A stretch of DNA of 63,714 nucleotides, counting the filler, from Rhabdomonas costata (taxonomy: Eukaryota), in the NCBI GenBank assembly GCA_019059605.1. It is 45 parts of 45 records of this genome, joined end to end, with 100 filler letters (N's around TTAATTAATTAA, not from the genome) between each part and the next. Parts side by side here need not be neighbours in the genome. Positions count along the whole stretch, not along the records: positions 22,685 to 24,003 come from JAHMHO010019568.1; 44 more parts are not named here. One strand, given 5' to 3'. This document shows positions 22,585 through 28,146 of this stretch, one piece after another (positions within the stretch are counted from its first letter, which is position 1; each line of letters opens with the position of its first letter). The notes beneath the pieces are model-generated. The model saw nothing but the letters and a program-made list of their open reading frames with translations, was not told where the DNA came from and did not search any database. The translations under genes and the position numbers were made by a program.

Positions 22585-23346
22585 NNNNNNNNNNNNNNNN
22601 NNNNNNNNNNNNNNNNNNNNNNNNNNNNTTAATTAATTAANNNNNNNNNNNNNNNNNNNNNNNNNNNNNNNNNNNNNNNNNNNNGGGGTGGTGTGGCAAG
22701 TGCGATTTCGGGTGTTAGGGTTGCCATTGTTTCGGCAGAAACTCCTTTTCCTGCGTTTGCTTAAATTGACTCAAGCCAGCGGAGGGATCCACGAGCGCGG
22801 TCCAGTTTTTTTTGGAAATCGGAGTATGAGAAATCGGAACTGATAATGTATGTGCAATTGAATAAGGCGAACTCTTACCCTACTGAGCTTGCAGAGAACT
22901 GACGTATGGTATTGTGGCTCCTCGAAGAGGCAGCGTGTTTTGTTCATTTGCTTCCCTCTCCCTTTGACAGTTTCCTCCCTATTGAGCTAAGCTGCAGACG
23001 GACCTTTCAATGGGTACCTTGCCGACAGCGGCATTGCTGCTGCTGTTTCTGAGTCAGGGGTGTCACACTCTTCTTCACCACCGAAGCCCCGTGGAAGGGT
23101 TTCACTCGAGCACACTCGGGGAGACGGATGAGGTTTTCCTGCTTCTTCTTCCTTGAGATTCAGATTCAGATTCTTTCTTTCCGCGTGTATGTGCTCAGGT
23201 GGAACTATTCCGCCGTTGTTTTGCTTACCCGGTGAGCTTACATAGCTGTTCCTTGCTAGAATATCGGAACCCCAAAACTTCCCGTCCAGACACATGTGCG
23301 GACACGCGACGGTCGCCCTCGGCTCCTCGGCAAGTCTTCCATTAGC

Positions 23347-23950
23347 AGGCCACACTATAAATCAAGTCTTTACAATCAAGTGTGAGGGAAACGTTGGTAA
23401 CAAACAAAATGTTGAAGTAAGACCTTACAGGAGCTTGCAGCACATGATTGTCTTAAGTGCCTCCTTCCTTGCATTAGTTTGGAGGTAAAGGGATGCTTTT
23501 CTGCTACTGTTCTGCACCTACTCGTGTGCGCAGCTTCGAGTTGTCCTCCAGGAGCAGCCGTCGACGGGTTATGAATGGGAACCCCTCTTTGATGACCAAG
23601 TGATTACCTTGAAGCAGGTCTCCCACCATTGTCCCCAAAATACCAGTCGCCGCCTTGTGGGACAGCCCTGTGATGTGGAGATGTGGTTTGTCGGGGTGTC
23701 CGAGGAGCGCAGCACCCCCGTGCAGTTCCAGTACCGCCGGCTGTGGGAGACCAGCCCGCCTCTTCGAACCATCTCCACCGCCGTGACTTCACTGAAGCCG
23801 TACCGTGGGCCCCGGCAGTTCTCCACCCTCGTTCTAGACGAGCCTCCGCACAGCCTGCCGCACTCCCGTCATCGTGCTCAGGGCACGGGCAACCTCCCTT
23901 TGGTGTACGATCCCCGAGTCCTGCCAGGCTTTCCTTCGCCAAAAGACCAG
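23347..23950 (+). CDS. Chagasin (I42) inhibitor domain followed by the start of a papain-like C1A domain
   Basis: An exon ending at 23416 (5' boundary uncertain) joins exon 23534-23950: VGNKQNVELRVVLQEQPSTGYEW..RRLVGQP..VQFQYRRLWE (the three chagasin loops), then LPLVYDPR..SPKDQ|gt. Confidence 0.7.
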
Positions 23951-24103
23951 GTTCGCGTACCTTGCGCAGAGGGGCCCTGAGTGTTTCGGTGTGGGCTCGG
24001 CTGNNNNNNNNNNNNNNNNNNNNNNNNNNNNNNNNNNNNNNNNNNNNTTAATTAATTAANNNNNNNNNNNNNNNNNNNNNNNNNNNNNNNNNNNNNNNNN
24101 NNN

Positions 24104-24919: not shown

Positions 24920-25387
24920 TTGACCACTGCATTTTCGGATAATCTCATTGACGGACCCTCCCTGCTGGCCCTCACCTCGAAGGACCTGAAGGATGAGCTT
25001 CACATCCATTCCCTTGCTCACCGCAAGGCTCTTCTCTCTGCGATCGCGGAGCTCGCTGCCGGCGAGGGCGAGCCGACGCAGCACCGCTCGCGGGAGCTGC
25101 CCCCTATGCCGAGTCCTATCCCGCCGATGCAGTCACTTTCCCTGCCGCACCGCCCGCTGACCGCACCCTCAGAGACTTCTTCGTCCGGAGAGTGGCTTAC
25201 GCACCGAGGCCTATCCAGCTCGGCATCGTTTCCTTCTGGTCTCGGCGCGTCTGCTCACCCACATACTACGCGCGCCAAAACTAATGGAACCCCAATGAAA
25301 GAGAAGGCTAAGCGCTACGACGCAGGCTCATCTGCAGCAGCTGGAACCTTTGAAACGAGACGCTGGTATTTTGGCGCCATAATATAG
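24920..25387 (+). CDS. SAM domain-containing protein exon
   Basis: AFSDNLIDGPSLLALTSKDLKDELHIHSLAHRKALLSAIAEL is the C-terminal two-thirds of a SAM domain. Exon boundaries are uncertain. Confidence 0.8.
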   Translation: MTTAFSDNLIDGPSLLALTSKDLKDELHIHSLAHRKALLSAIAELAAGEGEPTQHRSRELPPMPSPIPPMQSLSLPHRPLTAPSETSSSGEWLTHRGLSSSASFPSGLGASAHPHTTRAKTNGTPMKEKAKRYDAGSSAAAGTFETRRWYFGAII

Positions 25388-26941: not shown

Positions 26942-28146
26942 CTCGGGGACCAGTTCCCCGTCATGGTCGAGCTCACCTTCCCGGACGCTGGCAGAGACGG
27001 TGACGAAGAGCCCTGAGAAGAGCCGGAGTGTGACACTGAGCGAAAGCGCCTCCCGAGGGTTCTCTTTGTCTCGATCTTTGACTAAGAGCATCTCTGAGAC
27101 ACGCTCAATGAGCCCATCCACTCTTATGTCACCAACAGCGACGTTTTCTGCCCGGACGTTTCATTTTATGCTGGAGTCTTTTGCACCGTGGTCACAAACT
27201 GGTTTTGTTTTGAATGGTGCAGCCTATGAGACTATCATTACTGGAACGGGGTTCGCTCAACTCTCCTTGAACATCAGTCTCTCTGGTGTGCATGTGCACC
27301 CGCCTATTGCTTCGATTTGCTTTGATTTTTTGATGTTCGTTCTTTTCGTCATTTGGTTTGCAGGCCCCGCGATTTTGGTGGTGAATTCATGGAGTCCCAA
27401 GTTTGCTCGCTGCCTGGTTTCCAGTGCTATGCAAGTGACGTGCTCACGAAAAGAGGTGGACGATTTCAAGTGGCAGTCGTTAGCCGTGAATGTTTCGCTC
27501 CAAGTTTGGCAGAACATTTCGAGCACCGTCTCTGACGCCCCAGTAGTGGCTCTGACTTCAATGATGTACGCAAGGAGAAGCACGGACACTGGTTTGCACT
27601 TCGTTTGTGGCTCGTGCCCTTTTATTTCAGGCTCCTTGACATTTGGTCAGGTTCTTAACTTGTTGTGTGGGAAAAGGGTCTCGTTTTGTATCGCACCAGG
27701 GTATGGACGGGGGACAGAAACCCCTAACCCCGCTCTGGTTTGTAGGTTCTATTCTGGTGGGGAACTTCACCTTTGCTTTCTTGTTTTTTCAGTTGTGCAC
27801 GCGCTTGAGTAGAAACGAGAAAGTGACCACCTAAGAAAGGGGGGGGGGTTCAATCTCACCAAATCGCATAAACTGTGAAAATCCCTTTTCTCCGTTTTTC
27901 TGAATGTGTTTTGCTCGCCAGACCTGGTTTTGGTCCGTGAGGGTACTGCCGCAGCCCCCGTGCAGGCCCCGGGGCTGCAGACGGGGGTCACGGTGGAGTT
28001 GGCCCGAGATTCTGGGAACACCTCGCGGTTCCAGGCGTGCTCTCCGCTGCTGTGCTGCTGCGCCAGCACGACGGCGCCGTGGGTTGTGCGGGTGGTGCTG
28101 GACAACCCCACCCCAGGGTGGGGCCTGGGAACGCGGCTGAGGCTCG
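26942..28146 (+). CDS. Mucin-like S/T-rich extracellular protein (several exons)
   Basis: TxSxSxS-rich stretch followed by beta-rich exons with NxS/T sequons. Confidence 0.5.

Follow-up and report, generated by a model that had tools for sequence, protein, structure and literature searches.

Can a papain-family (C1) protease carry as its own prodomain an inhibitor of the type otherwise made as a free protein? Latency of papain-family proteases is, in the textbook account, provided by an I29 propeptide. A locus of the euglenid Rhabdomonas costata (GenBank assembly GCA_019059605.1) was found to encode a chagasin-type (I42) domain in that position, followed in frame by the beginning of a C1 domain. 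It is held by a 1,319 bp contig (JAHMHO010019568.1, positions 22685..24003, no strand assigned) of a 63,714-nucleotide window, a term used here for the whole stretch of DNA that was analysed (1-63714). The window is not a single locus; it consists of 45 pieces of 1,303-1,325 bp each, with 44 artificial TTAATTAATTAA joints flanked by runs of N. As the joints are artificial, a reading of gene neighbourhood across them is meaningless, and the stretches adjoining the contig are other, unlinked contigs.

We regard as reasonably probable, taken as a whole, the explanation that the locus represents the 5' part of RCo037668, a nuclear gene that R. costata expresses, and that this gene encodes a secretory-pathway C1 protease with an I42 domain in place of the I29 propeptide, which would be held latent in cis and whose module would have been taken from a bacterium. 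The evidence for each part, and the alternatives, are given below.

Gene model and transcript support

The exon at 23534..23950 (exon 2; all features of the gene given here lie on the plus strand) is open over 139 codons and encodes the core of the I42 domain, a linker and 20 residues from the start of the C1 domain. As described in a preliminary description of this DNA, it is uninterrupted, its 139 residues containing LQEQPSTGYEW, RRLVGQP, VQFQYRRLWE and NLPLVYDPRVLPGFPSPKDQ without a stop. The fragment encoded by this exon is referred to as P0001. An exhaustive HMMER search of 1.84 billion representative proteins gave 66 matches at E ≤ 0.001, the best being P0002 (R. costata RCo037668 in EukProt, 181 residues), which is 100% identical to the query across the matched stretch. 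The RCo proteins are transcriptome-based predictions, the genome being too fragmented for genes to be predicted from it (PMC8219788).

When exon 2 is joined to an exon further upstream (exon 1, 23010..23132), the translation reproduces residues 1-180 of P0002 exactly (180/180). Residue 181 of P0002 is Gly, while the genome after 23950 reads GTT (Val) and reaches a stop 12 codons on. Since P0002 is derived from a transcript and follows the joined exons before turning to Gly, both intron 1 and the donor after KDQ are transcript-backed. Intron 1 (23133..23533) is a phase 0 intron of 401 nt with GT...AG ends, and P0002 joins 23132 straight to 23534. The exon had also been said to end at a GT donor; this GT lies at 23951-23952 and has the same backing from P0002. 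Only the first 53 bases of intron 2 (23951..24003, GTTCGC...) precede the contig end, which thus lies 53 bases 3' of exon 2. The range given in the preliminary description, 23347-23950, holds for its coding part (23534-23950), but its first 187 bases (23347-23533) belong to intron 1.

Exon 1, which corresponds to P0002 residues 1-41, includes the start codon; it encodes a hydrophobic segment at the N-terminus (MGTLPTAALLLLFLSQG...) as well as the initial strands of the I42 domain (...STLGETDE). The gene start at 23010, with its signal-like N-terminus, was absent from the preliminary description. To judge by its hydrophobicity, the MGTLPTAALLLLFLSQG segment is a putative signal peptide; in the AlphaFold2 model of P0002 a helix was predicted at residues 5-15 and a strand at 22-26. 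An acceptor-like site (...CTGCAG|ACGG...) was noted at 22995-23009, 10-15 bases 5' of the start codon, and could be the spliced-leader addition site expected in euglenid mRNAs. A candidate upstream exon at 23348-23416 (GHTINQVFTIKCEGNVGNKQNVE, in frame) was rejected, as it is skipped in P0002, where 23534 directly follows 23132, and as DEL(R/H)V spans the junction in the paralogues.

The exon carrying the catalytic Cys had been placed beyond the contig, which was borne out: the contig stops at 24003 and is followed by an N/TTAATTAATTAA joint. When eight proteins of the family were compared by tblastn with the whole window, nothing was found outside 23052-23950 and no C1 exon was found elsewhere in it. 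Two CG(x)CW pattern matches, at 28087 and 56523, are in frames that are unrelated, one of them interrupted by a stop, and were dismissed as chance.

A chagasin-type I42 domain

The Pfam profile Inhibitor_I42 (PF09394, cut-off 27.2 bits) matches P0001 with an E-value of 1.1e-10 and 42.1 bits, residues 2-77 covering profile positions 9-83 of 91. When exon 1 is included, as in P0002, the match reaches back to profile position 5 and rises to 43.9 bits. An AlphaFold2 model of the 181-residue P0002, for which an alignment of 40 fusion proteins served as input, has eight strands and a mean predicted local distance difference test (pLDDT) of 82.6, with block means of 83-97 across residues 31-140. A Foldseek search of the PDB with this model gave ten best matches that are all of the chagasin family, with target-normalised template modelling (TM) scores of 0.70-0.86. 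The best was EhICP2 (3m86_A; E 2.5e-11, target-normalised TM 0.85, root-mean-square deviation 2.6), while T. cruzi chagasin reached a TM score of 0.73 in the same search, including chains from its complexes with falcipain-2 and cathepsin L. By phmmer against the PDB, only the Entamoeba and Pseudomonas inhibitors were matched at E ≤ 1, namely amoebiasin-2 (E 4e-4) and the Pseudomonas ICP (E 0.028), and in both alignments PSTGY, VGxP and RxWE of exon 2 stand opposite the same loops of the known inhibitor. The assignment of the N-terminal part to I42, which the preliminary description had exposed beforehand to refutation by profile and structure, is therefore upheld by matches of both kinds. It is confirmed that exon 2 encodes a domain of the chagasin family and that the match is not due to chance.

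Canonical I42 domains bind with three loops, reading NPTTG(Y/F)xW in loop 2, a Gly-containing loop 4 and RPW in loop 6. The corresponding motifs in exon 2 are QPSTGYEW at 23555..23578 (loop 2, aligned with PSTGYaW of EhICP2), LVGQPC at 23654..23671 (loop 4, aligned with mVGfP) and YRRLWE at 23732..23749 (loop 6, aligned with YsRPWE, with Leu in place of Pro). In P0002 numbering, G53 and W56 of loop 2, G84 of loop 4 and W112 of loop 6 are invariant in all 40 aligned fusion proteins. In chagasin itself, T31 and W93 have been reported as important for affinity (PMC2607524); their equivalents in P0002 are T52 and W112. By analogy with the free inhibitors, the R. costata domain would be expected to inhibit C1 peptidases tightly and reversibly.

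Two Cys residues inside the domain, C74 (23630-23632) and C87 (23669-23671) of P0002, are kept in all five R. costata paralogues and may form a family-specific disulfide near loop 4. A counterpart of C87 is also seen in the bacterial protein P0057 (GAPCD). The best match to this I42 domain outside Rhabdomonas is P0004, a hypothetical protein of 666 residues with five I42 repeats from the anaerobic fungus Piromyces sp. E2, a second eukaryote with a bacterial-style I42 architecture.

Fusion to a papain-family protease in the paralogues

Four other R. costata paralogues were found, namely P0003 (109 residues, a fragment), P0016 (380 residues), P0051 (745 residues) and P0031 (786 residues), giving a family of at least five paralogues with 36-52% identity. 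P0016, P0051 and P0031 align with exon 2 along its full 139 residues, linker included, and continue as DQG(T/S)CG(A/S)CWAF. Each has a Pfam Peptidase_C1 (PF00112) match of 108-126 bits. Alignment of these paralogues with relatives from bacteria shows conserved columns for Gln, Cys, His and Asn, the catalytic residues being C213, H355 and N375 in P0051 and C211, H350 and N370 in P0016. As the three long proteins are transcript-derived, the fusion is one mRNA reading frame and not an artefact of gene prediction. The proposal that I42 is fused in frame upstream of a papain-family protease thus stands, P0002 continuing KDQ with G and the three long paralogues with QG(T/S)CG(A/S)CWAF. The further proposal that I42 replaces the I29 prodomain agrees with the profile searches: the I29 profile (PF08246) gave no match in P0001 at E ≤ 10 and none in P0002, P0016, P0051 or P0031 at E ≤ 0.001.

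About 46 linker residues lie between the I42 domain and the start of C1; the I42 domain ends near residue 125 of P0002, and the LP that opens C1 is at 162-163. Directly after the I42 domain comes a fusion-specific motif, KPYRGPRQF (23795..23821). In the form (P/E)Y(R/A)GxRxF it is present in all four R. costata sequences that reach this point and in P0009, a 69-residue ENA fragment that is 53% identical over the linker and which, as a sequence match, shows that a relative exists elsewhere. Among the matches of the exhaustive HMMER pass, only four R. costata proteins and P0009 aligned beyond the I42 domain. The motif is followed by a variable linker (23822..23890) that is predicted to be largely disordered, with pLDDT below 50 at P0002 residues 150-158 and at the matching residues 162-179 of P0016. 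Going by these models, this segment would be the likeliest site of an activating cut.

The papain-family domain starts with NLPLVYDPRVLPGFPSPKDQ (23891..23950). This stretch aligns with residues 188-207 of P0051, within the PF00112 match of that protein. Its last codon (23948-23950) encodes the conserved Gln before the catalytic Cys; such a Gln, six residues ahead of the Cys, contributes to the oxyanion hole. Across 40 fusion proteins the columns that hold P163 and Q180 are at least 90% conserved, Q180 directly preceding CGxCWAF.

C-terminal to the protease domain, the two longest paralogues have in common a Cys-rich extension, about 300 residues long and without any match in Pfam (P0051 ~440-745, P0031 ~460-786). 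The tail of P0051 is hydrophobic and might be a membrane or glycosylphosphatidylinositol anchor; P0031 ends in a Ser/Thr-rich tract. Taken together, these C-terminal features suggest display at the cell surface.

Bacterial relatives of the fusion

Relatives were sought with residues 30-440 of P0051, which yielded 303 proteins at E ≤ 0.001 among 8000 candidates, the best 120 being listed. The paralogue P0031 was missed by this word-indexed search. Both PF09394 and PF00112 were present in 46 of the 59 best non-self matches, with E-values from 2.7e-45 to 1.2e-26, and the mention in the preliminary description of a similar architecture in some prokaryotes proved correct. Named relatives come from metagenome-assembled genomes of Chloroflexi/Anaerolineae or carry the JGI label 'C1A family cysteine protease/predicted secreted protein'; the other label given by the sources is 'C1 family peptidase' (examples are P0057, P0068 and P0070-P0126). 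The I42-C1 fusion itself is already abundant in public bacterial sequence data.

In the C1 domain the bacterial fusions score 105-164 bits against P0051, compared with 62-88 bits for enzymes bearing I29. The I42 domain stands directly upstream of C1 in all 50 fusion proteins (3 from R. costata and 47 others), with a gap of 24-65 residues over the whole set and of 33-35 in R. costata. The N-terminal modules align collinearly as NPSTGYxW, LLGAPx, YRRPWE, GP(Y/F)xG, a variable linker and LPxx(F/Y)(N/D). The motif after the I42 domain reads KPYRGPR in exon 2 and GPFTGA, GPYRGL or GSFSGA in bacteria, with AAGPYRGLV in P0071, a relative of P0057. This common order, spacing and linker motif argue for a single origin of the I42-C1 module.

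Other searches added little. In a profile search of the PDB, the best 60 of 200 matches were all obtained via the C1 part only, and among them there was no solved I42-C1 chain. A scan of metagenome contigs with a single protein gave 416 pattern matches, none of them a relative, and all scores in an ESM Atlas search were ≤ 0.83 and thus uninformative. A word-indexed search with P0001 returned no longer relatives, and one with the family profile returned only two and missed P0051, a member of that profile; with P0051 and P0031 among the members missed, these word-indexed searches say nothing on absence from other eukaryotes. Among the titles and abstract openings searched, no study of I42-C1 fusions was found. 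A gene fusion of stefin and chagasin has been reported from Bacteroides fragilis (PMC2784779).

Phylogenetic placement

A tree of the C1 domain was built from 123 C1-matching proteins, of which 90 were retained; 4 were dropped as multi-domain or odd C1-only rows and 29 as redundant members of the I29 type. In this tree the I29-type enzymes form a clade with support 99, and the three R. costata rows form another (98) on a long branch whose base is poorly resolved. In a quick mixture-model tree of the whole module (91 rows), P0002 joins its paralogues at 99 and the R. costata clade groups at 95 with P0057, P0069 and P0131, the last of these on a long branch. Across the quick mixture-model trees, the R. 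costata clade stands beside P0057 and P0069 at 76-95. A careful search under the mixture model with a set of 45 rows recovered the R. costata clade at 100/99 and split it from the I29 group at 100/100. It can be said firmly that the R. costata family is not an I29-type cathepsin. The trees fix neither the donor nor the direction of transfer.

A bacterial origin of the module is nevertheless likely, given the shared architecture, the breadth of the fusion in bacteria compared with only one eukaryotic species, and the absence of any special likeness to kinetoplastid chagasin. Horizontal acquisition, put forward as a possibility in the preliminary description, fits the architecture and the distribution, with the trees leaving the placement unsettled.

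Proposed mechanism and alternative explanations

If the explanation given at the outset is right, the protein would consist, in order, of a signal-like N-terminus, the I42 beta-sandwich, the (P)Y(R)G motif, some 25 residues of disordered linker and the catalytic domain. The I42 domain would dock on the active-site cleft of its own protein via the three loops (PSTGY, VGQP and RRLW), as free chagasins do in trans, and so hold the enzyme latent while it is exported. Cleavage within the exposed linker would then release the mature enzyme, with a start near LPLVYDP. The module would most likely have been taken whole from a bacterium, later gaining introns and duplicating. Free chagasins block the papain-like cleft with these three loops at inhibition constants (Ki) from pM to 100 nM (PMC7863939). 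Loop 6 of the R. costata proteins reads RRLW, RRHW or RRRW beside RPW, and it might be speculated from these motifs that such a relaxed loop lowers the affinity enough for release.

Several results, from the proteins and from the trees, weigh against this explanation. The loops of RCo037668 depart from the canonical form (Asn to Gln in loop 2, Pro to Leu in loop 6). Pfam detects no I42 domain in P0051 or P0031 at E ≤ 0.001; these two are tied to I42 by alignment and by jackhmmer from the domain of exon 2 (33.9 and 28.9 bits). P0001 has no PF00112 match at E ≤ 10, a fragment holding only about 20 C1 residues, and the catalytic Cys, His and Asn of RCo037668 itself lie beyond the contig. A single-chain AlphaFold2 model of P0016 (predicted TM score, pTM, 0.54) does not place I42 on the catalytic domain with confidence, a result that also speaks for a role of I42 other than that of a removable latency device. 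The domain might be retained and reshape the cleft, as cathepsin C's exclusion domain does, or be shed as an inhibitor acting in trans on C1 peptidases of other organisms or on others of the cell. The low Ki of free chagasins favours this, in that a cleaved I42 would not leave easily, and the cathepsin C exclusion domain is counted among the beta-barrel inhibitor-like folds (PMC7863939); many bacterial proteins, moreover, have 2-10 I42 repeats, for which only action in trans is possible. We consider such a role unlikely, as I42 occupies the exact position of a propeptide in 50/50 fusions and is followed by a short linker, predicted to be disordered in both R. costata proteins modelled (P0002 and P0016), while no I29 or other prodomain is there to give latency and the loop residues that bind the C1 cleft are invariant. 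It is highly improbable that the locus represents a paralogue that has been truncated or is decaying, with no working catalytic domain encoded further downstream. P0002 does stop one residue past exon 2 (181 residues), the related P0003 is also a fragment (109 residues), and the loop motifs of RCo037668 are the most divergent of the family (Gln for Asn, Leu for Pro); the exon is nevertheless open over 139 codons, spliced and expressed, it retains the I42 residues that are invariant and the conserved LP...Q at the beginning of C1, and short RCo proteins are to be expected from a fragmented transcriptome assembly (PMC8219788).

As to the trees, their rows were picked by similarity to the query, and known paralogues were missed by the word-indexed searches, so that absence from other eukaryotes is not established. 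The 90-row tree contains a bipartition of R. costata with the I29 clade (support 49). With LG+G4, the 45-row set places the R. costata clade basally, outside a clade of 27 bacterial rows (94), and likewise contains a bipartition uniting it with the I29 group (67); in both trees this grouping is neither demonstrated nor rejected. In the careful tree of the same rows, R. costata is sister to the 27 bacterial rows (74/84), and the bacterial P0138 falls outside R. costata plus these rows only at 75/49. The position beside the I29 enzymes in two trees and this weak nesting among bacteria would suit a family that is not a bacterial import at all but an old eukaryotic or euglenozoan C1 lineage, in which the I42 prodomain was kept or built independently. 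The introns, the five diverged paralogues (36-52% identity) and the eukaryote-style C-terminal extensions would suit it as well, as would the chagasin of kinetoplastids, which are also Euglenozoa. Such a history is nonetheless quite unlikely: order, spacing and post-I42 motif are collinear with the bacterial fusions, which makes independent assembly unlikely; the I42 domain of exon 2 is closer to the Entamoeba and Pseudomonas inhibitors than to T. cruzi chagasin (Foldseek identity 24% versus 16%); among the 66 HMMER matches the part beyond I42 was met only in R. costata and P0009; and a basal place next to a long outgroup branch under LG+G4 is the expected product of long-branch attraction. 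On the strength of the same two bipartitions, the R. costata enzymes might even be a surviving branch near the stem of the eukaryotic cathepsins, with I42 as the earlier prodomain and I29 as its later replacement, which we hold to be very unlikely. Bacterial contamination, for its part, would account for the nearest relatives outside R. costata being bacterial, and bacterial DNA was reported in one sample (PMC8219788). It is next to impossible, however, for a contig whose I42 domain is interrupted by a GT-AG intron of 401 nt, which is missing from the transcript-derived P0002, and in which a second GT donor follows KDQ; the protein set had, in addition, been decontaminated by its authors (PMC8219788).

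Comparison with known systems

The closest counterparts are the bacterial I42-C1 fusions, which share with the R. costata proteins a signal-like N-terminus, a single I42 domain directly 5' of C1, the GP(Y/F)xG motif and the C1 signatures LSxQYLxSCN and GGxxAHxYH. Among the fusions scanned directly, the bacterial P0057 has no I29 match, just as P0016, P0051 and P0031 have none. The R. costata gene differs in being a eukaryotic nuclear gene with GT-AG introns. At the protein level, the mature domain starts with YDP in place of the bacterial FNW, the bacterial Cys pair in NWCDxGGC is absent, the I42 domain has its two family-specific Cys, and the long paralogues have Cys-rich and Ser/Thr-rich C-terminal extensions, all unlike the bacterial fusions.

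Free chagasin-type inhibitors (MEROPS I42, PF09394; T. cruzi chagasin, EhICP2/amoebiasin-2 and P. aeruginosa ICP) have the same fold (TM 0.85 for EhICP2 and 0.73 for chagasin) and the same three loops (PSTGY, VGxP and RxW). They are, however, separate proteins of some 110 residues acting in trans, whereas the I42 domain of R. costata is the N-terminal part of a protease and only 16-24% identical to them. Zymogens with I29 (cathepsin L-like and papain-like) resemble the fusion in having an N-terminal inhibitory module before C1 in a secretory-pathway protein, and their logic of latency followed by cleavage is the one to be expected for the R. costata fusion also. The I29 propeptide is of a different Pfam family (PF08246), and the R. 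costata catalytic domains fall outside the I29-type clade. I29 propeptides are alpha-helical and occupy the cleft in the reverse direction.

In cathepsin C (dipeptidyl peptidase I) the exclusion domain is likewise a beta-barrel N-terminal to C1 that fills part of the cleft (PMC7863939), but it stays on the mature enzyme and does not belong to I42. In the PDB profile search, cathepsin C chains were matched via their C1 part only. Falstatin/PbICP (MEROPS I71) has a chagasin-like domain within a larger protein, with a weak fold match (3pnr_B, TM 0.50), but there the inhibitor domain stands at the C-terminus and no protease domain is present.

Other features of the window

The 45 contigs of the window are apparently ordered by length. 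On the adjoining contig, an open frame at 24944-25060 (plus strand; ...DNLIDGPSLLALTSKDLKDELHIHSLAHRKALLSAIAELAAGE) resembles a SAM (sterile alpha motif) domain by eye and is unrelated to the fusion gene.

Significance

What appears to be new here is an intron-bearing, expressed I42-C1 family of five members in a free-living euglenid, of a kind known in bacteria. For annotation it carries a warning, as Pfam shows only Peptidase_C1 in two of the three full-length paralogues. By analogy with the known zymogens, a chagasin-type inhibitor used as a built-in prodomain would be a second solution to latency beside I29. The R. costata family suggests that the whole module may also work in a eukaryotic secretory pathway, with introns gained and at least five expressed paralogues. 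It raises the question of how a tethered inhibitor, of a class that acts at pM to nM, becomes releasable in cis. R. costata is an osmotroph, which lives by absorbing dissolved nutrients, and a further question is whether the transfer of a gene for a secreted protease contributed to osmotrophic feeding. For both questions, that of inhibitor release and that of gene transfer, the R. costata family offers a tractable eukaryotic system.

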